In this document: positions 5,348-60,792 of the stretch, in pieces
Layout of the letters: the number at the start of each line of letters is the position of its first letter
Numbering within the stretch: position 1 is the first letter of the stretch
From: Candidatus Daviesbacteria bacterium RIFCSPLOWO2_01_FULL_39_23
GTDB lineage: Bacteria > Patescibacteriota > Microgenomatia > Daviesbacterales > UBA10151
Direction of reading: 5' to 3'
Assembly: GCA_001776935.1 (NCBI GenBank)
Contig: MFDN01000014.1
Span: 1,464-65,463 of the forward strand
Length of the DNA: 64,000 nucleotides
Program-made: the position numbers and the translations under genes
The notes under the pieces: model-generated
The model's database searches: none
What the model saw: only the letters and a program-made list of their open reading frames with translations
What the model was told of the DNA's origin: nothing

Positions 5348-6330
5348 TCTTTTTGATTAGCATAATAGATACCTTTGGTGTGTTGCCCATAGTACATAAA
5401 CCATGTGCCGTTTATTTTTGCGAGCGTTGGATCGGCAGGTGGGTTAGGTGGAAATTTGGTCATTGGGTTTTTGTTATTCGTAAAGTCGAAAACCGGTTGG
5501 GAAAAAGAACCATCTTTGTAAATCATATAGAAAACCCCGGCATAGCTCCAAAAGTAAACTCTAAGCTCCACTTGTCCTGAGGAATCCCATTTTACCCACT
5601 CTGCACCATCAGCCGCCCCAAGTAATGTCTCATTTCTTGAATCAATTGCCAACCCTTTCTTTTCAAATGTTAATCCGTCTTTGGAAGTAGCCCAAAAATA
5701 TACATGTGTGTCTTTGTTGGGAAGTTTTTCGCTGGTCTTATAAGGTTCATTAATTGTGCCGCGATAAAGCATAATGTAATTATCATCATCTAATCGAATG
5801 GTTCCTTGAGCACCTACATTTTCTAAATTAAATCCTGGCTCATTCTTATCAATTCTTACACCTGGTTCATCAGTCCAATTTAATCCGTCAGTTGAAATAG
5901 CACTTTTTATAACACCTGCATTTTGAAAATACATTCGCCATCGGCCATCAGGCAACTTAACAATGTCTGGAAAAGTAGCGAAAGTCTTTCTAATTCCGCT
6001 TTCTTTTTCCCAATTTATCCCGTCTTTTGAAACAGATGAATATACTTCCAACTTATTTCCGGGAACTTCAGGCTCAACAGAATAATATATTCGATATTGA
6101 CCGTTTTCAAGATCAACTACCTCGGCATCAGCATATCGACCTGCAATTATTATTCCTTTTTCTTGCCATTTAGACCCTACTTGTTTTACTTGTTCTGATT
6201 TTTGGTTTTGAAGACTTGGGGTTTGGACATCGCTTTTGGTTTTCAAAAACCGAAAAGAAGCAATAATTGCTATTATCACAATCACTGCAACCAAAATTAT
6301 TATGAGGGGAGCAGAACCTTTTTCTTTCAC
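5344..6330 (-). CDS. BNR/Asp-box repeat protein, membrane-anchored (paralog of 2285..3391)
   Basis: 328 aa with an N-terminal TM helix. Asp-boxes SKDGINWEKE, STDGLNWTDE and SKDGLTFEKK are present. Confidence 0.55.
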   Translation of the reverse strand: MKEKGSAPLIIILVAVIVIIAIIASFRFLKTKSDVQTPSLQNQKSEQVKQVGSKWQEKGIIIAGRYADAEVVDLENGQYRIYYSVEPEVPGNKLEVYSSVSKDGINWEKESGIRKTFATFPDIVKLPDGRWRMYFQNAGVIKSAISTDGLNWTDEPGVRIDKNEPGFNLENVGAQGTIRLDDDNYIMLYRGTINEPYKTSEKLPNKDTHVYFWATSKDGLTFEKKGLAIDSRNETLLGAADGAEWVKWDSSGQVELRVYFWSYAGVFYMIYKDGSFSQPVFDFTNNKNPMTKFPPNPPADPTLAKINGTWFMYYGQHTKGIYYANQKE

Positions 6331-7162: not shown

Positions 7163-7648
7163 TTATCTTTGAATTTGAGCTGCTTTTTCTTTTCGGATTT
7201 TATTGATTGTATCTAATAGTATGTCTACATCAAATGGTTTTGCAAGGAAACGCTCGACTGCTATACCTTTGGTTTCGCAATAAGCTGAAGCTACTTCTGA
7301 GGGAATTAATGTCGTCGTAACAATTAAGGAGGGGCGATAAGTTTCATCATGTTGAAATTGTTCCCCAGCCATTTTCATAATATCCGGTCCCTTTCCTCCC
7401 AAAAGATTAAATTCAGCGATAAAAAGATCCGGACGAAAACCAGCAGCTAAAACTTTTCGTGCAATTCCAAAAGACGGTGTCCATATATGTTTTACAGTGG
7501 GTAAATCACTTTTATATGAACCATCTCTCGGAAGACCAATTCCCCGAATTAAAAATACACACATTTGTCCCATTGTGGCGTCAGCTTCTAAATGAAGAAT
7601 GTTAAAAGCGCTTTTTTGATTAATTACTTTTGTTTCAGGACATACCAT
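7163..7648 (-). CDS. CheY-like receiver-domain protein (divergent acidic pocket)
   Basis: 161 aa. PDLFIAEFNLLGGKGPDIMKMAG ... PSLIVTTTLIPSE ... ERFLAKPFDVDILLDTI follows the receiver alpha/beta pattern (phospho-Asp region, T, KPF). The N-terminal DD pair is replaced by HLEAD. Confidence 0.5.
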   Translation of the reverse strand: MVCPETKVINQKSAFNILHLEADATMGQMCVFLIRGIGLPRDGSYKSDLPTVKHIWTPSFGIARKVLAAGFRPDLFIAEFNLLGGKGPDIMKMAGEQFQHDETYRPSLIVTTTLIPSEVASAYCETKGIAVERFLAKPFDVDILLDTINKIRKEKAAQIQR

Positions 7649-7698
7649 CTTTTAAGTTGGTTAGTAATCTGGTGAGATTATAATCTATATTATTCCAT

Positions 7699-7727
7699 TT
7701 GACAACATCAAACGTACACTCTATTAT
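7699..7727 (+). promoter_or_regulatory. Sigma70-type promoter TTGACA-17-TATTAT; the TSS is predicted at the ATG of the 7736 gene (leaderless)
   Basis: -35 TTGACA at 7699-7704, a 17-nt spacer, -10 TATTAT at 7722-7727. The ATG lies 9 nt downstream. Confidence 0.5.
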
Positions 7728-7735
7728 ACGAGCCT

Positions 7736-8983
7736 ATGATGGAATTAGAGCAGCGCCTTGCTACATTTAAAAAACTCCAAAAACTAGAGGCAGGCTTGGA
7801 CAAGATTGTCCGCCTGACAGAAAATATTGGAAGCACCCCCATTGTTTCTTCTTTAGATTTAAGTCGTTTTGACGAAAATAATCCTGCGCAAACTGAGGAT
7901 TTGCTAAAGACTGCCATTAAGGCCGGAATTGTGATAGAAAGATTAAATGTTAAGGCTAAACCAATCATAGAAGGAAAGATTAGAGAAATTAAAGGTGGAA
8001 CTGAAGGAAAAAGAATGAGTAGCTTGTTTGATGAAGCTGTTAATGCATTAAACCAAAGCAGCCTCGTTCCGGCAAGAATTGTTGGAAAGGCGGCAAGATC
8101 TGTATTAGTCTACAATACACCAAGAAATTCCAATGGGACTCCCGAGGAAAGGGTTTTTACTCAAGATGGTACTCTCACTAAAACAGAAGGAGCAATACTT
8201 GCAATAGCTATTGCAGAAGCTTCACTGAAACCTGAAGCAAAAAAAATATTTACCTTAGACAGCAAGTTTTCTGGATTTTTTGGTAAATTATGCAGTTCCC
8301 TGCCTCAAAAAGGGTCCGGCGAAATGAGCGTCTCCTCTTATAATGAAGCTAAAAGGGGTATTTTAAATAAGGCTGCTTTAATGGTGGCAGATCCGCAAAA
8401 TAATCATGTAGCACGTGAGGTTAAGTTGTTGTTTGATTGGATAAATAGTTGTACGGACCAAAAGGATGTTTTTTATGAAGCTATATTAGCAGTGGATGAT
8501 TGTTCAGATGCAACTGCCGTAATAGACTTAAGAAGTAAATTTCGGAGTGTTATGCAAGCTCGGTTTGATGAAAAATTCGCGAGAGATTTAGTAGAAGTAA
8601 CCAGAGAGGGAGAAGAAGAATTAAAAAAACATAAAGAATTGGAGGAGGCAAGGAAATTAAAGGAAGCCAAAAGACTAGCAGAAGCCGAAATAAAAAAGCA
8701 ACAAGAGAAAGATAGAAATCAACTGGCAGCAAAGATGGAAAAAATATTGGTAGGTTTGTGGTCAAGAGAGGCTCCTTACATAGAAATGTTAAATGAGGCA
8801 GTAGCAATAACACCTGGATTAGAGGGGAAAAAGAGGCTAGGATTAGTTGAAAAGGCCCTTGCAATAGCTAATTTAGAGCACAGACAAGCAACAGAGTTGA
8901 ACTTTACTGAAGAAGAGATGAAAGTGGTAAAGGATGTTGCTTCAGATATTTATATGAAAAGGATTAAAGAACCTAAAAAATAA
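7736..8983 (+). CDS. Hypothetical protein with a C-terminal coiled-coil
   Basis: 415 aa. The K/E-rich heptad segment KHKELEEARKLKEAKRLAEAEIKKQQEKDR is the only feature I see; no enzymatic motifs. Confidence 0.5.
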   Translation: MMELEQRLATFKKLQKLEAGLDKIVRLTENIGSTPIVSSLDLSRFDENNPAQTEDLLKTAIKAGIVIERLNVKAKPIIEGKIREIKGGTEGKRMSSLFDEAVNALNQSSLVPARIVGKAARSVLVYNTPRNSNGTPEERVFTQDGTLTKTEGAILAIAIAEASLKPEAKKIFTLDSKFSGFFGKLCSSLPQKGSGEMSVSSYNEAKRGILNKAALMVADPQNNHVAREVKLLFDWINSCTDQKDVFYEAILAVDDCSDATAVIDLRSKFRSVMQARFDEKFARDLVEVTREGEEELKKHKELEEARKLKEAKRLAEAEIKKQQEKDRNQLAAKMEKILVGLWSREAPYIEMLNEAVAITPGLEGKKRLGLVEKALAIANLEHRQATELNFTEEEMKVVKDVASDIYMKRIKEPKK

Positions 8984-14906: not shown

Positions 14907-15167
14907 TTGCCCGAAATAAACATGGGAATATGTGAGAGATGTCCTTTATATAAGAAAATCAAGCTTTATGAAAAAGCAGGAAGAGATCGTGATTTGGCAA
15001 GGCAAGAGGGCAAAACACAAGGGATTGGTAATGACGTGGAGGGATTGGTAGAGCATTTTGCAAACACAGCAGAGATGCTTAAAATTGCTTGCAAGTCAGA
15101 ACTTTTATGCAGAAAGTATTTTCCCGAATTGGTAGTTCAGCAAGAAATGGCAAGTGTTAAAGTCTAA
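14907..15167 (+). CDS. Small hypothetical protein (Cys-containing)
   Basis: 86-aa ORF with CERCPLYKK...CK...C. It converges on lexA and overlaps its stop. No SD was evaluated, so the call is weak. Confidence 0.25.
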   Translation: MPEINMGICERCPLYKKIKLYEKAGRDRDLARQEGKTQGIGNDVEGLVEHFANTAEMLKIACKSELLCRKYFPELVVQQEMASVKV

Positions 15168-15781
15168 GCAAACCTGCGGATAACCCCCACACATTTTCCC
15201 TGAATTTTTACATCAGTTGCATAAATCGGCTGCATGGTGGAGTTGGCAGGTTCCAACCTTATCCTGTTGGGTTCTTTGAAGAATCTTTTTAAGGTGGCAA
15301 GTCCGTTTTCCAAAAGTGCCACTACAATATCTCCGTCAATTGCGGTATTTTGTTCCTCAATAATGACATAATCGCCGTCTAAGATACCCTCTTCTATCAT
15401 AGAATCACCCTTAACTTGTAAAACATAAGAGCGTTTTTTACCCGAGACCATAGAAGACGCCACTTTTATTGAGGCATCAGGGTCTGTATAGGTCATTATT
15501 GGCTGGCCTGCTGCAATAAATCCCAACACCGGCAATTCTATTCCTGCTAGAGCAGCAGAAATCTTTTGGTCAACAACCTCAATCCCTCTGACAGCGCCTT
15601 CGAATTTTTTAATGACGCCTTTTGTAACCAATGCCTGCAAATGTTCGTGTACTGTTGCCAAAGAAGAAACCCCGATGCTTTCGGCAATTTCTCCAAGGGT
15701 TGGGGAATAGCTGTACTTTTCAATGTATTGCTTTATAAAATCAAGGATTTGTTTTTGTCTTCTATATAATGTTATTGGCAT
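15164..15781 (-). CDS. lexA: LexA repressor (SOS regulator, S24 peptidase)
   Basis: An N-terminal winged HTH (LTKRQKQILDFIKQY...SPTLGEIAESIG) is followed by a C-terminal VKGDSMIEEGILDGDYVIIE...K catalytic Ser/Lys dyad region. Confidence 0.9.
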   Translation of the reverse strand: MPITLYRRQKQILDFIKQYIEKYSYSPTLGEIAESIGVSSLATVHEHLQALVTKGVIKKFEGAVRGIEVVDQKISAALAGIELPVLGFIAAGQPIMTYTDPDASIKVASSMVSGKKRSYVLQVKGDSMIEEGILDGDYVIIEEQNTAIDGDIVVALLENGLATLKRFFKEPNRIRLEPANSTMQPIYATDVKIQGKCVGVIRRFA

Positions 15782-15876
15782 AACCCCACACTACCAATAA
15801 AACCCGAAGGTGTCAAGATAGCAATTTCTCTTACAATTCCCTTACCGCTGTTTTGTAGTTCTCTAACACTACTGCT

Positions 15877-21803: not shown

Positions 21804-21844
21804 TCCTTTCAATTCGGGTCTTTTTCGTGTTAGAATATATTTTT

Positions 21845-21892
21845 CAGTCATCAGTCATCAGACAGGAAAATCTGAAGACTGAAAGCTGACGA
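21845..21892 (+). repeat. Imperfect palindromic hairpin element (CAGTCATCAG / CTGAAGACTGA units) directly upstream of uvrB
   Basis: TCAGTCATCAGTCATCAGAC-AGGAAAA-TCTGAAGACTGAAAGCTGACGACT. A related copy lies at 60793..60844. Confidence 0.5.
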
Positions 21893-21897
21893 CTATT

Positions 21898-23859
21898 ATG
21901 AATTTTAAGCTTATTTCAGATTTTAAGCCGACCGGAGATCAGCCGCAAGCCATACAAAAGTTGGTGACAGGGATTGAAAACGGCAAAAAATACCAAGTGC
22001 TTTTAGGTGTCACAGGTTCAGGCAAAACATTCACTATGGCAAATGCCATAGCGCGTGTGCAACGGCCCACCCTGATTATTTCCCACAATAAAACTCTGGC
22101 AGGGCAGTTGGCACAGGAATTCCGCTCTCTTTTTCCAAGCAACGCAGTGGAATATTTTGTTTCCTATTATGATTATTATCAGCCTGAGGCATACGTTCCC
22201 CAATCAGACACTTATATAGAAAAAGAAACGGAAATTAATGAGGAAATTGAGAAACTAAGGCTTTCCACCACAGCTTCTTTGATGACCCGCGAAGACGTTT
22301 TGGTAGTAGCTTCAGTTTCAGCTATCTATAACCTGGGTTCACCTGTTGAATACGGTCAGGCAGTTTTAGAACTTAAAGCAGGCATGAAAACAACTTTTGA
22401 CGCGGTCTTAAAATTTTTAACTAAAATTTATTATCAAAGAAATGACATTGATTTTAAGCGCTCCACTTTTAGGGTGCGGGGAGACACAGTAGACATTTTC
22501 CCTTCCCATTGGGAAAAGGCTTTAAGGGTGGAATTTTTAGGCGAAAGTGTTGAAAAGGTTTCCTTTTTAGATCCTTTAACCGGTGATGTAACTCCGACTA
22601 ACGAAACGCAGATTGTTTATCCGGCAAAGCATTATGTAACCCCCGAACAAAGGTTAAAGCCTGCTTTAGTTCAGATAGAGGGAGATTTAGAATCAAGAAT
22701 TAAGCAGTTAGAATCAAGCGGTAAATTACTGGAAGCGCAAAGACTTGCACAAAGGACAAATTATGATTTGGAGATGATCCGGGAATTCGGTTACTGCAAC
22801 GGAATAGAAAATTATTCCCGCTATTTTGACGGACGCAATCCCGGAGACCCGCCTTTTACCCTGCTTGATTACTTTCCTAAAGATTATCTTATTATTTTGG
22901 ATGAATCCCATATCACGCTTCCGCAAATACGCGGAATGTATAACGGCGACCGCTCCAGAAAAGAAACTTTGGTGGATTTTGGGTTCAGACTGCCTTCTGC
23001 TTTGGATAACCGGCCTTTAAAATATGATGAATTCATGCGCAAAATAAACCAGGTTATTTTCACCTCAGCCACCCCGGATGAGTATGAGTTGTCTTTATCC
23101 GGAGCAGACAGTGTTGCAGAACAGCTTATACGGCCTACCGGAATTCTGGATCCGCAAATTAGTGTCCGCCCGATTAAAGGACAAATTGAGGATTTAATAA
23201 AAGAAATTGAAAAAAGAACACAAAAAGGCGAAAGGACACTCGTAACTACTTTAACCAAAAGAATGGCTGAGGACTTATCAGATTTTTTGAAAGAGAGGGG
23301 AATTAAGGTAAATTATTTGCATTCTGAAGTTTTAACTTTAGAAAGAAGCGATATTTTGCAGGCTTTAAGACTTGGAGAATATGACGTGATTGTCGGGATC
23401 AATCTGCTCAGGGAGGGGCTGGATCTGCCGGAAGTGTCTTTGGTTGCTATTTTGGATGCAGATAAAGAAGGCTTTTTGCGTTCCCGGACTTCTTTGATAC
23501 AAACCATGGGAAGGGCTGCAAGGCATATAAACGGCACTGTGATTATGTATGCAGACAATATGACCGGTTCAATGAAATCAGCCATCGGCGAAGTGCAAAG
23601 GAGAAGAAAAGTTCAGGCAGAATACAATAAAAAACACGGCATCACCCCAAGAAGCATTACTAAACCCATGCGGGAAAGACTGATTGAAAAGATAGAGGAA
23701 GAAACCGGAGAGCAGGTTTTAACAGTTGAAGATATACCTGTAAACGAGAGGGAAAGAATTATTAAAAATTTGGAAGAACAAATGAAACTGGCAGCAGAAG
23801 GCTTAGACTTTGAACTGGCAGCCAAATTAAGAGATCAGATAAAAGAGTTAAATATTTAA
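21898..23859 (+). CDS. uvrB: Excinuclease ABC subunit B
   Basis: Walker [14 protein letters not shown], the helicase motifs and the C-terminal UVR domain ([13 protein letters not shown]) are present. Length is 653 aa. Confidence 0.95.
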
Positions 23860-24064: not shown

Positions 24065-24130
24065 TTAATGCAAGTATACCTCTTTAAAAAGATTGCAAAA
24101 TAGGTTAAAATGGAACCTCATTTTTCGGGA
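24065..24130 (+). repeat. About 65-bp conserved promoter-like element, copy 1 (AGTATAyCCyCTTTAAAAG-TTGCAAAATAGGkTAAAATGGAACCTCATTTTTCGGGA)
   Basis: Near-identical to 29208..29270 (about 55/62 identities). It contains TTTAAA-17-TAAAAT and the palindrome AAAATG-N6-CATTTT. Confidence 0.6.
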
Positions 24131-24301
24131 TAAATTCGCTTTCCTGTCATTCTGGGGCGAAGCCGGAGAATATAATTTCCACAATTTCCACCTGGGAGGT
24201 GGCCCAGGTGTTGGAGTGTTAGACTGTTGTCGACTGTTATAGGATATTCTGCAACTAAAATCCACCTCCCGGGTGTTAAAGTGTTAAATGAACTGCTTTA
24301 G

Positions 24302-24574: not shown

Positions 24575-26140
24575 TTAGTTTTCCAAAATAGTGGGAGTAT
24601 TGGTACCGTAAACCCTGTCAAGCACAAATGCTGCTTCTGAAGAGCCATCAGATCTTTTAATCGGCTCAAAAAAAGCAATCTGGTCAGCAATGCTGCCTGT
24701 TGCTTTGTTTTCAGACTGGCTGTAAATATAGAATTTATTAATATCTCCAAAAGTCAAATCAGTATCGTTATTGGCACCTGAAGAAGCTATACAGGAAAGG
24801 CATTCGCGGATATTTTCCATCATCACATTAAAACTTTGGGTAGCCGTACTGGTGATTGTTTGCTGAGTGCTTTGAGCATAAATTATACTGCCTATTTCTT
24901 TTAATCTATTTTGGAGCTCAGGATTTCCAATATCGCTGCTTTGCCTTAAGCTGTTAAATTTATTCTTAACAGTTTCATAAATTTCTTCCAGCTTTACTAT
25001 TTGTTCCCTGATTTTACCGGTATATTGTAAAAGTGTTTCTTTTTCCTCAGCTGTTAATTCATCCTCATTTTTGACGATCAGGTTATCCAGGTAGTTTAGA
25101 TCCTGGCTGAGCGCAATAGCCCCGGAGGTTGGTTGAAAATCTTCCCCTAATCTTTGGAAAATTTTAATTACTGCCTCCGAAGGCTTTAGGAATTCTCTCA
25201 GCAGGGAAATTTTAGGTTCTGCTTCTGATTGTTTTATGAGGCCGACAAAATTAACTACTGCTGCCAAAGGCTTTATTTCATCCTGGAAATATTTTTTTAG
25301 GGACTCCGGATTCAGGGCTAAGTTATTTTGTTGTGCTGTATCAATTACAATTTGCCGTATTTTTTCCTCTTCTTCGCTAAATGCAATGGTTCTTCCGGGG
25401 TTGGCCAGCTGCTGGTACATTTTAGCCATTGTTGCTCCCACTGCTTTATTGCCAAAGTCCAAAAGTAGCTTCATGCGTTGTTTGTCTAAAGGTTCGGGGT
25501 AAAGGTCTAAATCTTCCAGGGTTTTTAAGTTTAAAATTATATTGGTAAGTTTAATGTCAATTGTCTCAATGTTACCGACTACTATGCTTGAACTTTCTTC
25601 CTGCAGCAGGCTAAAAAATTCCGGCAGATCTTCTGCTGGTAGCCCAAGGCTTTGCGCAAGCTGAGTATTCATTTCCGTTCTCTTTTTTAAGAGTTCTTTA
25701 ACTATCTGAGCTTTTTCCAGAGCTAAAAACTCATCCGGGTTAATATTTTTTCCTCTTCTGAAATTTTCCCATGAATCATTGAGCATCAAAGATAAATAGA
25801 ATCCCAGGATAGTTTCATTTTGCGCTGAACGATGGCTTAGATTGGCAAGATATTTAGAAATATTGGTAAATGACCTGATATGGTCCAGTGTAAATTGATC
25901 AGGAATCTTAATGATGCCAAAGCGGTCCTTAAACAACATGGCAATTCCTTCCAGCAGTCTTTTTTTATGGGCTTCAAACGGATTTTCGGTTGAGCCTAAA
26001 GCAGTGCCAAAACTTCTGATTTCGTGCCTTAACTGCAGCAGCTGTTTAGGATCAAAGTACTTAGTGCCGGATTTAACCTGTTCCAAAAGAGCCAGTTTTG
26101 CCCGGTATAAAGGGTAGATATCTTTGGCAAATTGTTTCAT
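24575..26140 (-). CDS. Large hypothetical cytoplasmic protein (alpha-helical, no recognised domain)
   Basis: 521 aa with no TM segment and no Walker or catalytic motifs seen. It starts 11 nt after the stop of the 1015-aa gene upstream. Confidence 0.55.
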   Translation of the reverse strand: MKQFAKDIYPLYRAKLALLEQVKSGTKYFDPKQLLQLRHEIRSFGTALGSTENPFEAHKKRLLEGIAMLFKDRFGIIKIPDQFTLDHIRSFTNISKYLANLSHRSAQNETILGFYLSLMLNDSWENFRRGKNINPDEFLALEKAQIVKELLKKRTEMNTQLAQSLGLPAEDLPEFFSLLQEESSSIVVGNIETIDIKLTNIILNLKTLEDLDLYPEPLDKQRMKLLLDFGNKAVGATMAKMYQQLANPGRTIAFSEEEEKIRQIVIDTAQQNNLALNPESLKKYFQDEIKPLAAVVNFVGLIKQSEAEPKISLLREFLKPSEAVIKIFQRLGEDFQPTSGAIALSQDLNYLDNLIVKNEDELTAEEKETLLQYTGKIREQIVKLEEIYETVKNKFNSLRQSSDIGNPELQNRLKEIGSIIYAQSTQQTITSTATQSFNVMMENIRECLSCIASSGANNDTDLTFGDINKFYIYSQSENKATGSIADQIAFFEPIKRSDGSSEAAFVLDRVYGTNTPTILEN

Positions 26141-26151
26141 TTGAGCTGGTT

Positions 26152-29100
26152 TTAACTTTGTAAAACTGCCAGATAATCTGAAAAAAGACTGGGCGCAGCA
26201 ATCAAAATATCACGGGAAATATTGTAAAAATCCGTTCTATCTTCATTAGACCATTTTTCTTTTGCAAATTTCTCTTCCATAATATAAATTCCATGGAATA
26301 CTTCAGATTTAGTTCTTTGCGCCGTGGTATCGCGGGCAAAACTATCATGCAGGCTAAGAATAAAATTGCTGAGAGATTCAAGCTGGCTAAGGGGTCCTGC
26401 ATCGCCATAAAGTGAAATTATTCCCGGTACTGCTAATAAGGAGAAAGGCATAATTTCTACACCTCCGCTTTTAAGATACTTTTCCCAGATGCTTCGGAAT
26501 TGATTAAGACAAAAATCCCTAGTTTTTGGTTCTCCAAACAGGGCAATGAGTTTTTCTTTTTGTGCAGTATTACTAAGGAGATGGTGATAGGGGTTATTCA
26601 TAATTTCAATGTAAGCCATTAACAAAGGCATCCAATTTTGCCCATTTATTGTGACTGTTTCCTGATCAAGCATTTGTTTGAGAGATTCTTGTTGTTTGAA
26701 TAAAGTAGCCTGGCAAAAATTCTTAAGCATTCTCTTGTCAATTTTTCCCAAACGCCCCAAGCTTTTTCCAAGTTCCGCGTCTTGCGTTAGATTAAGATTG
26801 AAAAACCCTTTTTCTTCGGCTTCTGTAAAGATTTCTAATCCTTCATCTGTCTCAAGGAATATTTCCGGGTAGCTTTCTGCCAAAGAAAAATTAGGATTTT
26901 TAAAGACCGGTCCGGCTTTGGAAGATAGCTCCAAGGCTCTTGCTTTAGTAAGTTTACCTCTGTCCACGAGATTTAGCATTTTAAAAATGATTGTTTTGTC
27001 AAAATCACGGTAACTTACAACCATGTCCTGAAAAAAATGTGAGGTTTGTTCGCCTTGAAATTGATATAATAATTGATGAAGGAGTGACAAGTCAGTGGTT
27101 AAGGCCGGGCAAATTTGCCAGGCTGTCAAAAGAGGCTCGAGCAAATTCGCATCAAAGCTTGATTCTCCTATTCTTGAAATCAACTTACCGTCTGTTAAAT
27201 AGATAATTACTCCCTTATTATGCTGATTTTGGATGATTTTTTGCGCTAATTTGTAAAATCTGTTTTGGATAATGTTTTTAGCCTCAGCTGCTTCTTTTTC
27301 CAGTCTACATTGTTCAAGCGACGGCCCCCATTCATCTATCATGTGCCCTGCATCAGACCATCCGACCGTATGCGCCGGTCTTTCCAGCTGGCCGGAAACA
27401 GACTTGAAGCACAGGAGTAATTTTTCTCTTAAGCTATTCAAAAAATACGCTCCGCTAATTTTTGCTGCCTGCTCAAAGACTTTTGATTCAGCCTCTGTGA
27501 TAACACCATTTTCTTCTAGTAAACCAAGGAGAGGAGTGATGGTTAGGCTGTCTGTTGCCATCTCCTTTAATGCCGGGTCTACCCCGGGTTCGTTTATGAT
27601 TGAAAGTGCAAGATTTGTTGCAGCTTCCCTGAATTTGGAGCGGATACCCCACTGCTGCAGGCCTTCCGGAATTTTTCTGGTTAATACCTCCCTGGCTGAT
27701 TTTAAGCTTGGATACACAGTTTCAGCTTGATCTAAAATAGAAGACCAGTCAGGCTTTTTGTTAAGTAAATTTAAAGCTCCAATTGCAGCATCAACTCCGT
27801 GGCTGGTATTTGCGGCTGCTGCTATCAATACTAAATTTCTGATAGTAGAAGGATGCGGGTATTCAGCAATAAAGTACACAACATGGCCTTGGTCGTCTTT
27901 AAGAGAATCCTTAAGTGCAAGTGAATAAAACAAGTTATCCTGCTCGCTGACAGCATCGCCCAGGACTTGAGCAGCAGCTTCTGATGTTTTGGCTGCCTGC
28001 CAGAAAGCCATTTTTGAACTAGAAGGGTACCTTATTTCACTATAAATTTCTTCCCAAAATTTTATATGACCTATAAAACCAGAGTTGCTACCATAGGTGC
28101 GATTATGCCGCAGATTGCTAATCTTGATATATTTTAATAAACCTTGGTGGAAATTACCAGAGCCCTCTGTTAGGTGGGTCTCTATTGCACTGCTTAGTAA
28201 ATAAATGTCACGCACAGCCATGTTATTGAGTAACTCGGCTACCAATGTTTTATTCATATCTTCCAAAAGCGGCTGGCAGCTTATTTTGAAGTCAGCAATT
28301 GTAAAACTTCCAGCATCATCAATATCTGCTTCAAGCAATTTTTTTAATCTGTCAACAGGAGTTTGACCAGCCTTATTTTGTTTTGTTGGACTAGTTATAT
28401 AATCCCGAAGAACTGTGTAGTATTTTCTTTGATCAGCCCAAATAAATGGATGCTCTTTGGGAATTTTTCTAAGCTTTGGTAAGATTACTTTTAAGATGTA
28501 AGTTTTAGCAAAGTCTGCTGGCAGGGTGCCGTCTGTAATAATTTCATCCGCCATTTCTTTGTACCCTTCTGAGATAGCTGAAAATTCCTGCTTAATTTCC
28601 TCTAAGATTGTTGCTTCCCGTTTTTGAGTCAGTTCATTTTGATTACCCTCGATTCCATTTATTGCTTTTTGTTTTTGTTCAAGCTGGCTTGCTGCTTCCG
28701 CAGCCTGGGCATCAAGTGAATCTTTTTGTGCTGAAAGTTCTTTTCTTTTTCTGCGGGTAAAAAATCTTCTGAGTCCGCGGATTTGGTCAACCTCCTGATG
28801 TTGTGCTGCAACTTCTTGGGCATTTTCTGTTAAGCGTTGGTATTCCCGCTCAATTGCAGATTTTTCCTGAGCTGTTTGAGCTTTTAACTGAAGAATACAT
28901 TGCAAAGCAATACTGCTTCTTGCCAGGTATTCGGCTGCAGAGCCCGGGGGTATTTTTTGCAAATCTTCCAATAAGTCTTGCAGATTTTGAGGAGAGGTTT
29001 TAATTTCGCTATCAGGCTCCGGAGGCGTTACAGTCAGGTTATTTATTAAGGCAGGAGCATTTTCAACATACTGGCTGGTTCGGGCCCTTAAGGAGTTTAG

Positions 29101-29199
29101 TTTGGTAGCTAAAATAGCTGTTGGAGAGGCAGGAGTGGTTTGTAATTCAGGGCTTTTGGTTGGATCTTTAGGCGGTTCAGGCTCAACAGTTGTAGGCAT
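26152..29199 (-). CDS. Very large hypothetical cytoplasmic protein with coiled-coil regions (no recognised domain)
   Basis: 1015 aa. The N-terminal region is Pro/Thr-rich, and Q/E/K-rich coiled segments span aa 120-200. No TM segment and no NTPase motifs. Confidence 0.55.
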   Translation of the reverse strand: MPTTVEPEPPKDPTKSPELQTTPASPTAILATKLNSLRARTSQYVENAPALINNLTVTPPEPDSEIKTSPQNLQDLLEDLQKIPPGSAAEYLARSSIALQCILQLKAQTAQEKSAIEREYQRLTENAQEVAAQHQEVDQIRGLRRFFTRRKRKELSAQKDSLDAQAAEAASQLEQKQKAINGIEGNQNELTQKREATILEEIKQEFSAISEGYKEMADEIITDGTLPADFAKTYILKVILPKLRKIPKEHPFIWADQRKYYTVLRDYITSPTKQNKAGQTPVDRLKKLLEADIDDAGSFTIADFKISCQPLLEDMNKTLVAELLNNMAVRDIYLLSSAIETHLTEGSGNFHQGLLKYIKISNLRHNRTYGSNSGFIGHIKFWEEIYSEIRYPSSSKMAFWQAAKTSEAAAQVLGDAVSEQDNLFYSLALKDSLKDDQGHVVYFIAEYPHPSTIRNLVLIAAAANTSHGVDAAIGALNLLNKKPDWSSILDQAETVYPSLKSAREVLTRKIPEGLQQWGIRSKFREAATNLALSIINEPGVDPALKEMATDSLTITPLLGLLEENGVITEAESKVFEQAAKISGAYFLNSLREKLLLCFKSVSGQLERPAHTVGWSDAGHMIDEWGPSLEQCRLEKEAAEAKNIIQNRFYKLAQKIIQNQHNKGVIIYLTDGKLISRIGESSFDANLLEPLLTAWQICPALTTDLSLLHQLLYQFQGEQTSHFFQDMVVSYRDFDKTIIFKMLNLVDRGKLTKARALELSSKAGPVFKNPNFSLAESYPEIFLETDEGLEIFTEAEEKGFFNLNLTQDAELGKSLGRLGKIDKRMLKNFCQATLFKQQESLKQMLDQETVTINGQNWMPLLMAYIEIMNNPYHHLLSNTAQKEKLIALFGEPKTRDFCLNQFRSIWEKYLKSGGVEIMPFSLLAVPGIISLYGDAGPLSQLESLSNFILSLHDSFARDTTAQRTKSEVFHGIYIMEEKFAKEKWSNEDRTDFYNISRDILIAAPSLFSDYLAVLQS

Positions 29200-29207
29200 G
29201 ATTAGTA

Positions 29208-29270
29208 TCAGTATATACCCCTTTAAAAGTTTTGCAAAATAGGGTAAAATGGAACCTCATTTTTCGGGAA
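29208..29270 (+). repeat. About 65-bp conserved promoter-like element, copy 2, upstream of uvrA
   Basis: See copy 1. The uvrA ATG lies about 50 nt downstream. Confidence 0.6.
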
Positions 29271-29318
29271 TCCTTCGACTCCCCTTCGGCTTCGCTCAGG
29301 GTCGCTCAGGATAAAAGT

Positions 29319-32261
29319 ATGGCTATAGACAAGATAATAATCAAAGGTGCCCGTGAGCACAATCTAAAAAATATAGATTTGGAAATTCCTAAAAACAAAC
29401 TGGTGGTTTTAACCGGCATTTCCGGCTCCGGCAAATCTTCTTTGGCTTTTGATACTTTATATGCAGAAGGCCAAAGGAGATACGTGGAATCCCTTTCTTC
29501 TTACGCCCGGCAGTTTTTAGGGGTAATGGATAAGCCTGATGTGGATCTTATCGAAGGGCTTTCCCCGGCCATTTCCATTGATCAAAAAGGTGTTTCGCAC
29601 AATCCGCGTTCCACTGTTGGTACCACCACTGAAATTTATGATTATTTAAGACTCTTGTTTGCCCGCATCGGCCATCCGCATTGCCCTGTTTGCGGAGCAG
29701 AAGTCTCCAAAATGAGCGTGGAGCAGATAGCAGAAAAAGTGACAAGTGATAAGCAACAAGTTACAAGTAAAGGAAGGAGGATAATGGTTTTGGCGCCTGT
29801 TGTAAAAGACCGGAAAGGGGAATACAGTCAGCTTTTTGAAGACTTAAAGAAAAAAGGATTTTCAAAAGCCCGGATTGACGGTCATATAAGGGATTTATCC
29901 GAGGATTTAGTTTTAATTAAAACTAACAAACATACGATTGACTTGGTTGTAGACCGGCTGGTCTTAGAGTCAGAAGTCAAGAGTCAAAAGTCAAGTGAGG
30001 CAAATTCTAGACTCTCGACTCTAGCTACTAGACTCTTGCAGAGTATTGAGACAGCGCTAAAATTTGGCGAGGGATCTGTAATTATTTCTGAAGTTTTGGA
30101 TGCGTCTTTGGAGTTTCCGCAAAACCCGAAAAAAATGAAAGATCACCTGTACTCTGAAAGATTTGCCTGCCCGGTAGACAATATATCTTTGCCGGAAATT
30201 GAACCAAGGCTGCTTTCTTTTAATTCTCCCCATGGTGCCTGTCCTAAATGTTCAGGTTTAGGCACACTTCTTGAGATAGACGAAACCACTATTTTAAACC
30301 CGATTCTTTCCATTGAAGAAGGCGGGATACTTCCCTGGTCAAAGCTGGCAACATCTGATACCTGGTTTACCAAGCTTGTAACTGCAGTGGGTAAAGAATA
30401 CGGGTTCGACCTTAGTACAAGGCTTGGGAGTTTGACGCCTGAGGCTAAGCAAATCCTGCTTTTTGGTTCAGGCGACAAGGAATTTAAAGTGGAAGGAAGA
30501 AACAGACAGGGTAAATGGACGCACTTTTATTCTGAATTTTCCGGACTTGTCGCCTACCTTAAGCAAAGGTATGAAACTTCTGAATCAGACTTTGTCAAAG
30601 CGGAGATAGAAAAATATATGTATAAGGAAACTTGCCCCAAATGTAAGGGCGCAAGGCTGAAAGATGAGGCTTTATCAATCACAATAGACAGTTTAAATAT
30701 TGCAGAAGTAACCGGACAGTCAATAGTGCAGACCCTTGAATGGATAAAATCAATTCAAATCAATGGTCGGGAAGCGCAAATTGCCACCCCTGTTGTGAAA
30801 GAGATTAAGGCCAGACTGCAATTTCTGATAGATGTCGGTCTGGATTATCTGACTTTGGACCGGGCTGCGCAAACTTTGGCAGGAGGAGAAAGCCAGCGGA
30901 TCAGGCTTGCCTCACAAATTGGCTCAGGTTTATCAGGTGTTTTATATGTTTTGGATGAGCCATCAATAGGTTTACACCAGCGCGATAACGCGCGTCTTAT
31001 ACAAACACTTAAAAAATTACGGGATTTAGGCAATACGGTGGTGGTTAATGAACACGACGCTGAGACAATGGAAGCTGCGGACCTTTTGATAGAAATCGGT
31101 CCGGGAGCAGGCGAGCACGGCGGCAACATAGTGGCTATAGGTACGCCTGATCAGATCAAAAAAAACGCAGCATCTTTAACAGGCCAATATCTTTCCGGTA
31201 AAAAAAGAGTGACTGTTCTCAGTCACCCCAAAGATGCCCCAGAGCGACAGGCGAAGGATCTTATTAATGGTAAATTTCTTAAGATTAAGGGAGCCAGTGA
31301 GCATAACTTAAAAAATATCAATGCAGAATTTCCTTTGGGTAAATTTATTGCTGTCACAGGCGTTTCAGGATCGGGAAAGTCAACGCTAATTCATGACATT
31401 TTGTACCGGGCTCTGGCGCAAAAAATATACCGCTCCCGCGAAAAGGCAGGGGCTTATAAAGAAATGGAAGGCGTAGAAAATATCGACAAAGTGGTGCTTG
31501 TGGATCAATCTCCTATTGGCCGGACTCCCCGATCTAATCCTGCCACCTATACCGGCGCTTTTACATTCATAAGGGATCTTTTTGCCAATTCTCCCGAAGC
31601 AAAAATAAGGGGATATGGACCGGGCAGATTTTCTTTCAATGTTAAAGGAGGACGGTGCGAGGTTTGTGAAGGGGAAGGAACTTTAAAGATTGAAATGCAG
31701 TTTTTGCCTGATGTATATGTGACTTGTGAGGCCTGCAATGGTAAAAGATACAACAGGGAAGCGCTTGAAATTCATTTTAAAGAAAAAACAATTGCAGATG
31801 TTTTGGATATGACAGTTGAGGAGGCTTTAAAGTTTTTTGAAAATATTCCTTATATAAAAAATAAACTGCAGGTTCTAAATGATGTAGGTCTTGGTTATAT
31901 CAGGCTGGGCCAGCCTGCGCCCACTTTATCCGGCGGAGAAGCTCAAAGGATCAAACTTTCATCTGAATTATCCAAACGGCCCACAGGACATACCATGTAT
32001 ATTTTGGATGAGCCCACCACGGGTTTACACTTTGCAGATATAGAAAGACTGCTGGCAATCCTTAGAAAACTTGTAAATTTTGGTAACACCGTGATAATCA
32101 TTGAACATAATCTGGATGTTATCAGGAATACTGACTGGATTTTGGACTTGGGACCGGAAGGCGGCGATAAAGGCGGAAAAATAGTTGCTGAAGGCACGCC
32201 TGAAAATATCGCCAAGCTTAAAGCTTCCCACACCGGTCAGTATCTGGCAAAGATAACATGA
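29319..32261 (+). CDS. uvrA: Excinuclease ABC subunit A
   Basis: Two ABC ATPase modules ([14 protein letters not shown] and [13 protein letters not shown]), a zinc-finger (CPVCG) and signature LSGGE motifs are present. The ORF track begins at 29232, but the conserved N-terminus [19 protein letters not shown] starts at 29319. Confidence 0.95.
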
Positions 32262-32292: not shown

Positions 32293-34251
32293 ATGTTTAG
32301 AAAAACGCTGGTAGTTTTACCCCATTTTTTGAGATACGTGATACGTGATACGAAATATGTTATTTTTATACTGTTTTTACTTATCACTTGTCACTTATCA
32401 CTTATCCCTCCTGTGTTTGCTGCAGAGGAATTTGCAACCTCCTATGATGTGTTATACGACATAGGTGAGGACGGCATTGCTACTATTACTGAAAAAGTTA
32501 ATCTGCGTAATTTAACCTCTGAATATTATGCCAATCAATTTAAGCTGACTATCGGCGCCACTCAGATTTCCGATATTAAGGCTTCGGATGCAGGCGGCAG
32601 CTTGGAAATTGCAAGCGAGCAAAAAGAAAATCTGACTACAATCAGCGTTAAATTCAATCAGCAGGTGGCAGGTCTTGGGAAAAATTTACCCTGGACTATT
32701 TCATTTAAATCTAAAGATTTCGCTGAAAAAGTCGGCAAGATTTGGGAGGTTAGGGCGCCCCGGATTTCGCCCACTTCCAACCCGGAAAGTTATAACTTAA
32801 CATTGTCTGTTCCCAAAATCTTTGGTGATCCTTCGCAAATTTCCCCAACCCCGAAAAGCCAGACAGTTTCAGGAAATAAACTATTTTTAACATTTGATAT
32901 GGAGCAACTGAAGTCTTCCGGAGTATCCGCCACTTTCGGCCAGAACCAGCTTTTTGACTTTGATCTTACTTATCATTTGGAAAATAATAATCTGGTGCCT
33001 GTCCGCACTAATATTGCCCTGCCTCCTGACACTTCTTTTCAGGATGTTATTTATCAAAGGATAGAACCTAAACCGCTGAATGTCACTCTGGATAATGACG
33101 GTAACTATTTAGCCTGGTTCCGTTTGGAAAGAGGTCAAAAAATGGATGTTAAAGTTTTTGGATCTGCAAAGCTTTATTCAAGTTCCAAAGTTAAAAATCC
33201 CTTTTTAGAAGAAAGCTTAAGAAATAAATATACTTCTGCGGATAAATATTGGGAAAAAGATAATCCGCAAATTATCAGTAAAGTAAATGAGATTTTGGGT
33301 AAAAATCCTCCTCCGGATAACGGGGAAAAGGCGAAACTTATTTTCCGTTTTGTAGTAAACTTTTTGAAATATGATTCCTCGCGGCTTGAGGGCAACATAG
33401 AAAGATTCGGAGCAGTTACTGCGTTAAATAATCCGGATACTGCCGTATGCATGGAGTTTACAGACCTTTTTATAGCGCTTGCAAGAGCCGCCGGCATTCC
33501 TGCGCGTGAATTAAACGGATACGCCTACAGCGCCAATAATGCTTTGCGCCCGCTTTCTTTAACAAAAGATATCCTCCATTCCTGGCCGGAATATTGGAAC
33601 GCAAGCCGCGGATGGGTGATGGTGGATCCAACCTGGGAAAATACCACGGGTGGAGCGGATTATTTCAGCAAGTTGGACCTTAATCATTTTGCCTTTGTGG
33701 TAAAAGGTTCGTCTTCATCCGAACCGATTCCTGCCGGGTCTTATAAATATACGGGTCAGGAAGATACGCGGGATGTTAAAGTTTCTCTGTCTGATACGGA
33801 CTTTTTGGGGCATCCTCAGATTGATGTTGTTTTAGAGTCCCTCAATCCGGTTATTTCCGGTTTTCCCGGCAAGCTGGTTATTAAGGTTACAAATACCGGC
33901 AATTCTTTTTTTCCTTCCGATTCCCTGACAATAAACTCGAACAAACTGACAATCCAAAACTCCAAAACCCAAAAGTTGGGTATAATTCCCCCTTTTGGAA
34001 GTTCGGTATTTGAATTTAATGTCAGGACAAAATCCTTATTTGATTCTTTTACAGATCAAATGACAATTGCCATAGGCAATCAAAAATTTACACAGGAAGT
34101 GAAGGTAGCTCCTTTTATTTTATTTCAAACAGTTCCGCTGATTATTTCTGCAGTTGCCGCTTTTATGGTTTTGGTGTATGCGGTGATTTTAGGTGTCTTC
34201 ATTTACCGGAAGCGGATTCTTAAAGCAAAGCTTCAAGCCGGTAAATCATGA
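32293..34251 (+). CDS. Transglutaminase-like domain membrane protein
   Basis: A signal/TM segment is followed by a core VCMEFTDLFIALARAAGIPARELNGYAY...SWPEYW...GWVMVDP (Cys-His-Asp transglutaminase-like triad context) and a C-terminal TM helix. Its stop overlaps uvrC by 4 bp. Confidence 0.7.
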   Translation: MFRKTLVVLPHFLRYVIRDTKYVIFILFLLITCHLSLIPPVFAAEEFATSYDVLYDIGEDGIATITEKVNLRNLTSEYYANQFKLTIGATQISDIKASDAGGSLEIASEQKENLTTISVKFNQQVAGLGKNLPWTISFKSKDFAEKVGKIWEVRAPRISPTSNPESYNLTLSVPKIFGDPSQISPTPKSQTVSGNKLFLTFDMEQLKSSGVSATFGQNQLFDFDLTYHLENNNLVPVRTNIALPPDTSFQDVIYQRIEPKPLNVTLDNDGNYLAWFRLERGQKMDVKVFGSAKLYSSSKVKNPFLEESLRNKYTSADKYWEKDNPQIISKVNEILGKNPPPDNGEKAKLIFRFVVNFLKYDSSRLEGNIERFGAVTALNNPDTAVCMEFTDLFIALARAAGIPARELNGYAYSANNALRPLSLTKDILHSWPEYWNASRGWVMVDPTWENTTGGADYFSKLDLNHFAFVVKGSSSSEPIPAGSYKYTGQEDTRDVKVSLSDTDFLGHPQIDVVLESLNPVISGFPGKLVIKVTNTGNSFFPSDSLTINSNKLTIQNSKTQKLGIIPPFGSSVFEFNVRTKSLFDSFTDQMTIAIGNQKFTQEVKVAPFILFQTVPLIISAVAAFMVLVYAVILGVFIYRKRILKAKLQAGKS

Positions 34252-35558
34252 TCCCCTCATTTGTAGAAAAAACCCGGGTTCCAAAAAAACCCGGCGTCTA
34301 TATTTTTAAGGATAAAACAGGCAGGGTTTTATATGTCGGAAAAGCAATAAACCTGTACAACCGCGTATCCTCATATTTTTCCCACGTTAAATCAGGCAAA
34401 ATATCCTCACTTGTGGATCAAATCAGTGCCGCAGAAACTATAACTTGCGAATCCGAACTTGAGGCTTTGATTTTAGAAGCCAATTTCATTAAAAAATATT
34501 TACCTCCTTTTAATGTCAGACTGGTGGATGATAAGGATTACTTATATATAGTCATAACTAAAGAAGATTTTCCCAAAGTTATTACAGCCAGAAAAAAGGA
34601 ACTTGAAGGTGCGGAAAAATACTGGGGGCCTTTCCCTTCTGCCCGGACAGTTAGGGATACATTAAAATCTTTACGCAGAATCTTTCCCTGGTGTAGTCAA
34701 AAAAAGCTCTTTGCTGTTAGCCGTTCGCTATTGGCAGCTAATAGCCAAAAGCTAATAGCCAATAGCTATAAACCTTGTTTTTACTATCACTTAGGTTTGT
34801 GTCCGCCGGGTGCATGTATGGGGTTAATTTCCGAAAAAGACTATAACAGGATTATTAGCAGATTTTCTAAATTTATGGACGGCAAAAAAGAACAGCTGTT
34901 GTCTGATCTTACAAAAGAAATGATGCAGGCCTCAGGTAAGCAAAAGTTTGAAGATGCAGCGAGGATCAAAAAGACTATTAACGGGATTTTGTATATGACC
35001 CAGCCCCAAAGGACCAACCTTTATTTGGAAAACCGGAATTTTTTGGAAGAAGAAAGGGAGCTTGCTTTAAAAACTCTGCAAAAGGATTTAAATTTAAAAA
35101 CTTTGCCGCAAAGGATAGAAGGATATGATATTTCCAATATCTCAGGCAAAGAGGCCACAGGTTCTTTGGTTGTTTTAACAAACGGGGAGATTGATAAATC
35201 CCAATACAGAAAATTTAAGATTCATATTACCGGCAGACCTAATGATGTAGGTATGCATAAAGAGATGCTGATAAGACGCTTAAACCATCCCGAGTGGCCT
35301 ATGCCCGATTTAATTATTGTTGACGGCGGCAGGAGTCAGGCAAAAGCTATGCAAAGCATACTACATACTACCAGCTACATAATACCAATTTTTGGCCTTG
35401 CAAAAAGGATGGAGTGGTTATACCCGCCTGAGGGAGAGATAATAAAACTTCCAAAAAGAAGCCTTTCCTTGAAGCTCCTGCAAAAATTACGGGATGAATC
35501 ACACAGATTTGCCTTGAGCTATCACAGAAAACTTCGTGATAAGATAATGATAGGATGA
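34248..35558 (+). CDS. uvrC: Excinuclease ABC subunit C (short form lacking the C-terminal HhH domain)
   Basis: GIY-YIG N-terminus (GVYIFKDKTGRVLYVGKAINLYNRVSSYF), a Cys-rich region, and the endonuclease region ending ESHRFALSYHRKLRDK. Length is 436 aa, against about 600 for typical UvrC. Confidence 0.85.
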   Translation: MIPSFVEKTRVPKKPGVYIFKDKTGRVLYVGKAINLYNRVSSYFSHVKSGKISSLVDQISAAETITCESELEALILEANFIKKYLPPFNVRLVDDKDYLYIVITKEDFPKVITARKKELEGAEKYWGPFPSARTVRDTLKSLRRIFPWCSQKKLFAVSRSLLAANSQKLIANSYKPCFYYHLGLCPPGACMGLISEKDYNRIISRFSKFMDGKKEQLLSDLTKEMMQASGKQKFEDAARIKKTINGILYMTQPQRTNLYLENRNFLEEERELALKTLQKDLNLKTLPQRIEGYDISNISGKEATGSLVVLTNGEIDKSQYRKFKIHITGRPNDVGMHKEMLIRRLNHPEWPMPDLIIVDGGRSQAKAMQSILHTTSYIIPIFGLAKRMEWLYPPEGEIIKLPKRSLSLKLLQKLRDESHRFALSYHRKLRDKIMIG

Positions 35559-60784: not shown

Positions 60785-60792
60785 ATTGGTAA

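Follow-up and report, generated by a model that had tools for sequence, protein, structure and literature searches.

How did an imperfect inverted repeat come to lie in frame within the excision-repair gene uvrA, and is it kept there as protein, as DNA or as RNA? We addressed these questions for a stretch of 64,000 nucleotides (the window) from a Candidatus Daviesbacteria genome, in which the element spans positions 29962-30038 (73-77 nt) of uvrA. A sequence-only reading of this DNA had proposed an insertion like the Rickettsia palindromic elements (RPEs), belonging to a family of mobile palindromes. The element is indeed a lineage-specific, in-frame, palindromic simple-sequence addition to a conserved part of UvrA, but, in the 64 kb and the related 9-kb loci covered, it is no member of a dispersed family of palindromes. 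That reading also missed the 7-nt periodicity as a lineage-wide feature and the strong nucleotide-level constraint on the arms. The element looks as if it had been assembled locally, with a composite origin, and not by transposition. The explanation that we favour, and that we regard as an evenly balanced proposition, is a translated quasi-palindrome, assembled locally and constrained as a nucleotide sequence, whose stem-loop is selected, most likely in the uvrA mRNA.

Alignment of the window UvrA with solved UvrA structures using phmmer gave a gap of exactly 15 residues (E219-S233), where about 15 extra in-frame residues had been estimated. In Geobacillus stearothermophilus UvrA (2r6f) the gap falls between VVDRIIIKD and GIAARL, and in the window the extra residues follow VVDRLVLES; the alignment with 9gxk UvrA showed the same 15-residue gap. 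The extra nucleotides number 45 relative to 2r6f and 27 relative to relatives with a plain loop. The reading frame of uvrA is uninterrupted through the element, as the sequence-only reading had stated, and the DNA reads as given there, the imperfect inverted repeat of GAGTC-type units resolving into two opposed heptamer arrays (Table 1). The inverted repeat takes in the whole element, native codons included, and no terminal inverted repeats were found beyond the arrays. An inverted-repeat search reported 18-nt arms that are 78% complementary; with seed 8, such a search missed the heptamer hairpins, and a gap-free hairpin scan missed the uvrA element. The pattern GAGTC-N3-AGTC occurs three times in the window, always within the element, compared with 0.14 expected. 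A perfect complement, (TGACTCT)n, would put TGA in frame at two of the four right-arm units, and at those two units the base, read directly from the sequence, is A (AGA, Arg). The same logic applies to a hairpin in uvrC, where the sole unit in which TAG would be in frame is AAAAGCT.

The closest uvrA genes among 185,579 species genomes belong to Candidatus Daviesbacteria (Microgenomates, candidate phyla radiation (CPR)/Patescibacteria), with 72-86% protein identity. An identical 980-residue UvrA is encoded on 11 contigs in NCBI, JGI and ENA assemblies, the longest being DPCX01000016.1 (assembly GCA_003516415.1), so the element is not an assembly artefact. For comparison we used the window genome (WIN), related loci of about 9 kb each (L-numbers, 1.24 Mb together) and UvrA cluster representatives (P-numbers). 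The segment from LVVDR to IETAL was surveyed in 120 Daviesbacteria cluster representatives. Its length ranged from 24 to 67 residues, being exactly 30 in 66 of the 120, at most 31 in 80 and 45-67 in 24. With 66 clusters having the plain 30-residue segment and only five in the hairpin state (WIN, P0122 = L005, P0124 = L009, P0128 = L166 and P0188 = L167), the alignment agrees with the proposal of a lineage-specific insertion. The left arm in the window is a decayed version of the perfect (AGAGTCA)x4 found in L005, L009 and L166, which reaches 4.3 perfect units in L005 and L009.

The five hairpin species, whose UvrA proteins are 80-86% identical to that of the window, were compared at the nucleotide level. 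Third-codon positions were invariant at 15 of 20 arm sites, compared with 13.8% of 940 elsewhere in uvrA (binomial p = 1e-9). The element ranked first among the 872 72-nt windows of uvrA for invariance, ahead of the ATPase motifs, and it did so for all positions and for third positions alone. Only 4 of 12 columns of the hairpin loop were invariant across the five species; since the loop has drifted this far, the element is an old one and did not spread recently. L005 and L009, which overall are 79% identical in nucleotides and 54% identical at third positions, share an identical run of 50 nt confined to the element (permutation p about 0.001). The left arm diverged by 2.8/32 among hairpin species and by 8.7/32 among species at similar distances that have only the left-arm patch. 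These alignments suggest that purifying selection acts on the element at the nucleotide level.

The same numbers bear on the possibility that the element is a neutral by-product, that is, a heptamer repeat and quasi-palindrome generated by slippage or template switching in a tolerant loop and functionless both as nucleic acid and as protein. Several facts suit a neutral origin: among short tandem-repeat periods 7 is the most frequent, both in the window and across the related loci (1.24 Mb), the loop is hypervariable, the copy in the window has decayed and no covariation was seen. A passenger, however, should drift like synonymous sites, whereas the arms are the most conserved stretch of uvrA while the loop drifts. 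Nor can slippage homogenisation explain why the right arm, with its mutually different units, is conserved, or account for the 17-nt non-repetitive stretch common to L005 and L009. We consider a purely neutral element unlikely.

The two arms appear to have separate origins. In L165 the uvrA loop (4713-4744) matches uvrB codons LESRVKSLESS (1912-1943) at 32 of 32 nucleotides (TTAGAGTCAAGAGTCAAGAGTCTAGAGTCAAG), and the match takes in an irregular third unit. The uvrA left arm of L005 matches its own uvrB site-1 array at about 85%, and a second array site in uvrA of L009, at +418, has an exact match of 18-19 nt to its own uvrB. In L009, L075 and L166 the same array family is found at uvrB site 1, uvrB site 2, uvrA +418 and the uvrA loop. 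Site 1 is native to uvrB, as its gapless alignment to solved UvrB structures shows; in the window it is a degenerate array (AGAATCA AGAATTA AGCAGTT AGAATCA) encoding a 13-residue peptide. The comparison of uvrB and uvrA arrays within and between genomes covers few genomes and is decisive in L165 and L009 only. We infer that the left arm probably arose by short ectopic templated copying between neighbouring genes, and the direction and mechanism of the exchange are likewise deduced from these matches. Quasi-palindrome or template-switch mutagenesis and short ectopic gene conversion are established replication-error mechanisms; they produce templated patches from nearby sequence, direct or inverted, bounded by microhomology, and they shift imperfect inverted repeats towards complementarity. 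Continuing conversion from uvrB was rejected as the cause of left-arm conservation: the uvrA arms of L005, L009 and L166 are identical, whereas the uvrB arrays of the three match neither one another nor the arm. As a separate observation, uvrA of L165 (GCA_041643115.1) is split by an in-frame TAG (..KEIQ*RVKF.., 5546-5550) into genes of 493 and 474 residues, which could be a pseudogene, a sequencing error or a case of readthrough.

In L075, L165 and L085 the left patch (ESRVKxLESS...) is present and exactly 21 nt of the right arm are absent, the protein reading ...SRLSQSIETA. The right arm therefore consists of native SRLS codons (AGACTCT) followed by a three-unit, frame-preserving expansion. 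The three-unit difference separates patch-only from hairpin species; no length variants were seen within a species. A variant with the right arm only occurs in P0002.

This composite structure speaks against an RPE-like mobile palindrome, or one resembling MITEs (miniature transposable elements with inverted repeats), that was inserted in frame as the sequence-only reading had it. Such an element would be palindromic, in frame and lineage-restricted, as this one is; moreover, arrays of the same heptamer lie at several sites, the window has two related TCAGTCA hairpins at a distance of 39 kb, and a truly dispersed palindrome family occupies the same loop in sister species. But the right arm is partly native coding sequence and the intermediates exist (patch only; right arm only in P0002). 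A search of the 64-kb window allowing up to 3 mismatches returned one match only, with no further copies, and no target-site duplication was found in the flanks CTGGTCTTA and CAGAGTATT, nor any terminal repeats outside the arrays. Every window hairpin has its own heptamer, and the divergence of the loop while the arms stayed unchanged argues against recent independent insertions. We hold insertion of a mobile element to be highly improbable.

The dispersed family has a different sequence. In 18 of the 120 Daviesbacteria clusters the same UvrA loop holds another insertion, starting DK(S/T)VI..., whose DNA is the palindrome GTCATT[CT/GC]GAGCGAAGCGAAG[A/C]AATC...(inverted copy)...AATGAC. It lies in frame in the UvrA loop, encoding peptides such as VILSEAKN...SPQNDK, and also in frame at one fixed UvrB site (YELSLA..SS-VIASGAKQS..TPRNDE-K), at a second uvrA site and in intergenic DNA. 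No full copy was found in the window. Because these palindromes are dispersed and in frame at the same loop, an RPE-like phenomenon does exist in the lineage, involving another element. This surface loop of UvrA is a hot spot for insertions, on which palindromic DNA of at least two kinds has landed repeatedly in CPR bacteria. We found no description in the literature of the GTCATT palindromes or of in-frame palindromes in CPR bacteria.

Does the element fold? The window hairpin RNA had a minimum free energy (MFE) of -28.1 kcal/mol over 91 nt (z = -1.8) and of -22.9 over 83 nt (z = -1.0), the latter within the top 2.3% of all 83-nt windows. The orthologous elements with a perfect (AGAGTCA)x4 left arm gave z = -4.2 in L005 and -3.2 in L009. 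The symmetry that the sequence-only reading expected to exceed composition is thus marginal in the window itself and clearly above chance in these two relatives, indicating that the window holds a somewhat decayed copy of a real hairpin. Orthologues without the element showed no fold, and the patch-only relatives L075, L165 and L085 no significant hairpin. Across the five species 97.5% of 120 pair cells were paired, compared with 17-43% for slid controls. Three one-sided changes keep pairing, all of them G-U-compatible on the sense strand; four further arm changes fall in unpaired columns, and of the three pair cells that are broken, two belong to the window genome. The candidates of an intrinsic terminator and a promoter were rejected: no terminator-like site was found in 29700-30300 and no promoter at the element. 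No Rfam family reached its gathering score in the window, and a scan of 29700-30300 at a permissive E-value returned only CRISPR-DR19 (20 bits, E = 0.71).

We propose that about 32 nt of (AGAGTCW)4 matching the uvrB codons LESRVKSLESS first arrived in the permissive UvrA loop, copied ectopically from a uvrB template, perhaps with microhomology (TTAGA... / ...TCAAG) at its borders. In a second step the native AGACTCT (SRLS) heptamer downstream would have grown by three units, and because the expansion is 21 nt the reading frame would be kept. Because AGAGTCT (AGA-G-TCT) comes close to self-complementarity, the two arrays could then form with each other an imperfect stem of about 24 bp, and once both arms were present their nucleotide sequence would have become strongly constrained. 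The stem-loop would be the selected object, acting in the uvrA mRNA, for example on processing, stability or translational pausing, and so setting how much UvrA is made. Such control of uvrA by an mRNA stem-loop is our best guess at the role of the element, because the wobble pattern is that of the sense strand, no promoter, terminator or Rfam match was found, and the arrays have no relation to the LexA-type box described below.

Several observations weigh against this explanation. L167 has the uvrA patch and an uvrB site 1 without an array, so that either the direction from uvrB to uvrA is not universal or the donor was later replaced; the left arm may instead have arisen in situ from a TCAAGAG proto-repeat in the ancestral loop. 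The hairpin of the window genome is the weakest of the five, with its two broken pairs and z of about -1 to -1.8. Compensatory, two-sided changes were seen in 0 of 24 pairs, because the arms hardly vary, and selection on pairing is therefore suggested by the pattern rather than proven. Conservation of the primary sequence, for example as a protein-binding array of GANTC sites, fits equally well. Finally, the sample comprises five species, and a rough neighbour-joining tree shows a patchy distribution.

The last alternative but one can be made specific: five GANTC/GAGTC sites at 7-nt spacing would be read at the DNA level by a methyltransferase, a nicking enzyme or a regulator, and the primary sequence would be conserved for that reason. 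Five of the 47 GAGTC/GACTC sites of the window lie within 69 nt at the element, GANTC survives two substitutions of the right arm (GACTC to GATTC, in L009 and L166), and relatives have the same array at up to four sites in uvrB and uvrA. However, GAGTC is not avoided in the window (47 observed, 58 +/- 8 expected), the other heptamer hairpins of the window lack GANTC, and the left arm drifts where the right arm is absent. Avoidance or clustering of a restriction site was likewise rejected on these counts, which give no sign of a restriction system acting on GAGTC. The arrays also differ from a candidate direct-repeat SOS (LexA) operator. A TTCGGGT(N)TTTTTCG-like box is conserved in the lexA-uvrB intergenic regions of many Microgenomates; it takes the form TTCGGGT..TTTCG near the lexA and uvrB starts and a looser one, TTTTTCGGGA..TTCG, upstream of uvrA. 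As this conserved box is unrelated to AGAGTCA, the arrays were rejected as LexA operators. A DNA-level function of the arrays is in our opinion improbable.

Could the protein itself have gained from the insertion? The insertion site lies within the UvrB-binding domain, as judged from alignment to the domain defined in Mycobacterium tuberculosis UvrA (residues 129-255; PMC3167621). AlphaFold modelled this domain confidently (predicted local distance difference test, pLDDT, above 90) for UvrA residues 1-330 with 86 aligned sequences. In the model residues 204-216 form a strand, 217-225 (SEVKSQKSS) a lower-confidence loop and 226-249 one helix. The expansion is predicted to lengthen the native helix by about two turns at its N-terminus; the site is structurally permissive, and the protein appears to accommodate the peptide as a loop followed by this helix extension. 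An adaptive insertion, in which the UvrB-derived peptide (ESRVKSxESS) and the lengthened helix tune the UvrA-UvrB interaction, would agree with this location, with the near identity of the inserted peptide to a UvrB helix and with the ordered helix extension in the model. Yet the lack of variation at third positions of 4- and 6-fold degenerate codons is beyond what selection on the peptide can account for. The insertion is absent from most Daviesbacteria, sequences unrelated to it fill the loop over the whole length range given above, and the inserted loop is modelled with the lowest confidence in the domain. An adaptive role of the peptide is thus, in our judgement, very improbable. A short-peptide protein search gave no matches.

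The heptamers of uvrA are part of a wider pattern. Five tandem arrays of period 7 were found in the window, compared with 0-2 for every other period from 4 to 13, and only periods 7 and 14 were enriched among its tandem repeats. In the related loci 7 was again the most frequent short period (108 arrays in the Microgenomates genomes, compared with 52 of period 6 and 36 of period 8). This excess fits what is known of bacteria, in which heptanucleotide repeats are over-represented and polymerase slippage is held responsible (Mrazek 2007, as cited in PMC4679880 and PMC4692102). Similar insertions had been claimed in uvrC, in the transglutaminase-like gene and in rsmI; the first two were found as heptamer hairpins (Table 1), and an rsmI gene, looked for in the window, was not located. 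Each window hairpin is built of its own, different heptamer. The uvrA +418 site is a heptamer hot spot in many relatives. In the distant bacterium L117 (UvrA segment identity 38%) an in-frame inverted heptamer pair, (AAAGTTG)n/(AACCTTC)n, lies at 4190-4258 in a different UvrA loop (z = -4.4; peptide SKVESSKLKVEGENLKPSNLQPS); therefore translated heptamer hairpins are not confined to CPR bacteria.

Taken further, the heptamer stem-loops might form a selected, translated layer of post-transcriptional control on the SOS/excision-repair cluster (uvrB leader, uvrA, uvrC and the gene between), spread by in-frame templated copying of about 30 nt, an extension that we put forward as doubtful. A regulon specific to nucleotide excision repair (NER) was rejected, since the second TCAGTCA hairpin precedes a MacB/FtsX permease gene and not a repair gene. 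The two TCAGTCA hairpins have TCAGTCATCAGTC(A/T)TCAG ... CTGACGACT in common, and each ends a few bases before a start codon. The TCAGTCA unit is one mismatch away from the reverse complement of the TAACTGA repeats, which lie upstream of start codons in Beggiatoaceae and cyanobacteria (PMC4679880).

Arrays of a unit that is not a multiple of 3 also suggest a contingency locus, in which gain or loss of a single heptamer would shift the frame and switch uvrA between off and on, so that the mutator or repair state would be phase-variable. Arrays of 4-5 units in uvrA (two sites), in uvrC and at the 5' end of the surface-protein gene would suit such switching, as would the three-unit length difference between species. 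But none of the UvrA proteins examined, partial or full-length, was frameshifted or cut short at an array, and phase variation was rejected on this ground; the two frameshifted proteins that did occur break elsewhere, one of them (P0046) right after PKK, apparently at an A-run. The identical protein on eleven contigs of the species and the short, imperfect arrays of the window point the same way, and this is the least probable of the explanations that we weighed.

Other arrays of the region are recorded here as such. The uvrA +418 array and the transglutaminase-like 5' array (32379-32406) are inverted copies of one heptamer, and the same inverted sharing occurs in L019 (3428 and 6639) and L021 (3424 and 6429); in all three the arrays lie 2.6-3.2 kb apart, and the common heptamer differs by species (AAGTGAY, AAAGTAA, ACAGGCA). 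Sharing of a heptamer with at most 1 mismatch was more frequent within loci (19/114 pairs) than between them (197/2512). In many Microgenomates the signal-peptide/5' region of the transglutaminase-like surface-protein gene has perfect or near-perfect arrays of 4-8 units, with different unit sequences (besides the window, L019 6639, L036 6297, L044 5972, L049 3710, L022 5934 and L081 6287), a layout typical of slippage-driven phase variation of a surface protein. Large intergenic structures include a hairpin (AATTTCT)n/(AGAAATT)n at L027 8385-8502 (MFE -44 kcal/mol, z = -9.4) and inverted arrays (TAAATCC)n/(ATTTAGA)n at L101 3485-3627, immediately followed by a GTCATCCTGAACGAAGTGAAGGATC palindrome arm.

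Table 1. Positions of the uvrA element, its genomic surroundings and related features (window coordinates unless a related locus is named)
Feature	Coordinates	Strand	Remarks
Left arm, AGAGTCA GAAGTCA AGAGTCA AAAGTCA (+AG)	29966-29995	+	(AGAGTCA)x4 type; codons E217-S226 region; Tandem Repeats Finder period 7/14
Hairpin loop, TGAGGCAAAT	29996-30005	+	Variable between species
Right arm, TCT AGACTCT CGACTCT AGCTACT AGACTCT TG	30006-30038	+	(NGACTCT)x4 type; Tandem Repeats Finder period 7 at 30006-30036
Native SRLS codons of right arm	30006-30017	+	
In-frame expansion of right arm, 21 nt (3 x 7)	30018-30038	+	Encodes TLATRLL
uvrB site 1	22687-22725	+	Native uvrB codons; paralogue and probable source of left arm; gapless alignment to solved UvrB
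Second in-frame uvrA array, AAGTGAC x4.6 (+418 site)	29737-29768	+	12-residue peptide; 5 residues longer than 2r6f
In-frame heptamer hairpin in uvrC, units NGCTNTT / AATAGCY	34705-34767	+	28-nt arms; MFE -26.3, z = -4.6; longest loop among orthologues
Heptamer hairpin in transglutaminase-like gene, (GATACGT)x3 ... (ACTTATC)x4	32333-32406	+	5' end, N-terminal/signal-peptide codons; z = -4.0
Intergenic hairpin, (TCAGTCA)x3 / (AGACTGA)-type	21844-21894	+	Ends 3 nt before uvrB start codon; z = -4.8
Related TCAGTCA hairpin	60790-60842	-	Before MacB/FtsX permease gene
lexA	15164-15781	-	
Gene for 1966-residue surface protein	between lexA and uvrB		
uvrB	21898-23859		
Two unannotated genes between uvrB and uvrA	24575-26140, 26152-29199	-	Large, without Pfam hits
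uvrA	29319-32261	+	980 residues; host gene of element; full-length match to solved UvrA structures
Transglutaminase-like gene	32293-34251		
uvrC	34248-35558		
TTCGGGT..TTTCG-like box (candidate)	15782-15830, 21813-21827, 29255-29285; L167 848-1144		
GTCATT palindromes in sister genomes	L006 3685; L007 3661 and 2014; L016 4441; L017 3673; L035 1312; L093 1048 and 4097; L097 4097; L100 4094		
GTCATT palindromes, intergenic	L089 6687; L101 3631; L120 6434; L160 3707		

Between uvrB and uvrA the window has an exact 24-nt direct repeat, AAAATGGAACCTCATTTTTCGGGA, at 24107-24130 and 29246-29269 (0 expected by chance). The pair brackets about 5.1 kb with the two large minus-strand genes, and a fragment resembling the GTCATT palindrome follows each copy (24146-24175 and 29285-29312). 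The spacing of uvrB and uvrA in relatives is much smaller, about 0.1 to 2.4 kb, so the segment looks like an insertion with duplicated ends. In L166, one of the hairpin-state genomes, a gene between uvrA and the transglutaminase-like gene (7416-8078, minus strand) has a weak Pfam hit to a Y1 (IS200/RAYT-like) transposase. Enzymes of this type act on DNA hairpins.

If the constraint is real, uvrA offers a natural case of an essential repair gene whose best-conserved feature is a nucleic-acid structure and not the protein, and the birth of that structure could be followed stepwise through states that still exist (a plain loop, a uvrB-like patch, the patch with the 21-nt expansion). The 32 nt common to uvrB and uvrA would document short in-frame copying from gene to gene as a source of new peptide segments. 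Were the post-transcriptional layer to exist, the element would be a conserved RNA structure hidden in an essential open reading frame (ORF) and made by micro-conversion between genes. The recurrent landing of palindromes in the UvrA loop of CPR bacteria, of which we found no description in the literature, parallels the Rickettsia RPEs. Such elements can mislead the annotation and alignment of CPR proteins, and they make gene regulation accessible to tests in organisms that are difficult to grow.

Among known systems, RPEs (PMC10969869) and the enterobacterial RU/ERIC elements (PMC2759123) are alike in that palindromic DNA lies in frame inside housekeeping genes, adding a surface-exposed peptide while function is kept; in the uvrA element, too, the insertion is in frame at a structurally permissive site and leaves the host ORF open. 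RPEs, however, measure about 150 bp (PMC10969869), or about 100-150 bp as a class, and form conserved families with tens of copies per genome in unrelated genes, whereas the uvrA element has 73-77 nt and is single-copy in 64 kb. It further differs from RPEs in being partly native coding sequence, built of 7-nt repeats and without a target-site duplication, and it lacks the terminal inverted repeats and target-site duplication of MITEs. It is thus only analogous to both, failing on size, multi-copy conserved family and target-site duplication. The GTCATT palindromes of Microgenomates share the UvrA loop and the frame (18 of 120 clusters) but have a different sequence without 7-nt periodicity and are multi-copy and dispersed.

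The element belongs to the broad class of bacterial heptanucleotide repeats, the long simple sequence repeats (LSSRs): its units run head to tail above chance, and period 7 is over-represented relative to neighbouring periods in the window and in the related loci. Known families include the cyanobacterial STRR heptamers, Xanthomonas GGGAATC and Beggiatoaceae TAACTGA (PMC4679880, PMC4692102). The Xanthomonas arrays sometimes form inverted pairs able to make stem-loops (PMC4692102). In a heptamer array all three frames give the same heptapeptide, and the orientation containing a stop is excluded from ORFs; some arrays lie immediately upstream of start codons (PMC4679880), as the TCAGTCA hairpins do here. 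The uvrA unit is unlike every described family, and the arrays differ from known LSSRs in being short (about 4 units), in frame inside essential genes and paired with an inverted array into a translated hairpin. We found no description in the literature of a translated inverted arrangement, of an origin from another gene or of conservation above the rest of the host gene; the uvrA arms are conserved across species far above the synonymous background, and one of them matches another gene. Quasi-palindrome mutagenesis and ectopic conversion are known as single events, whereas their presumed product in uvrA has been kept in at least five species, apparently under purifying selection.

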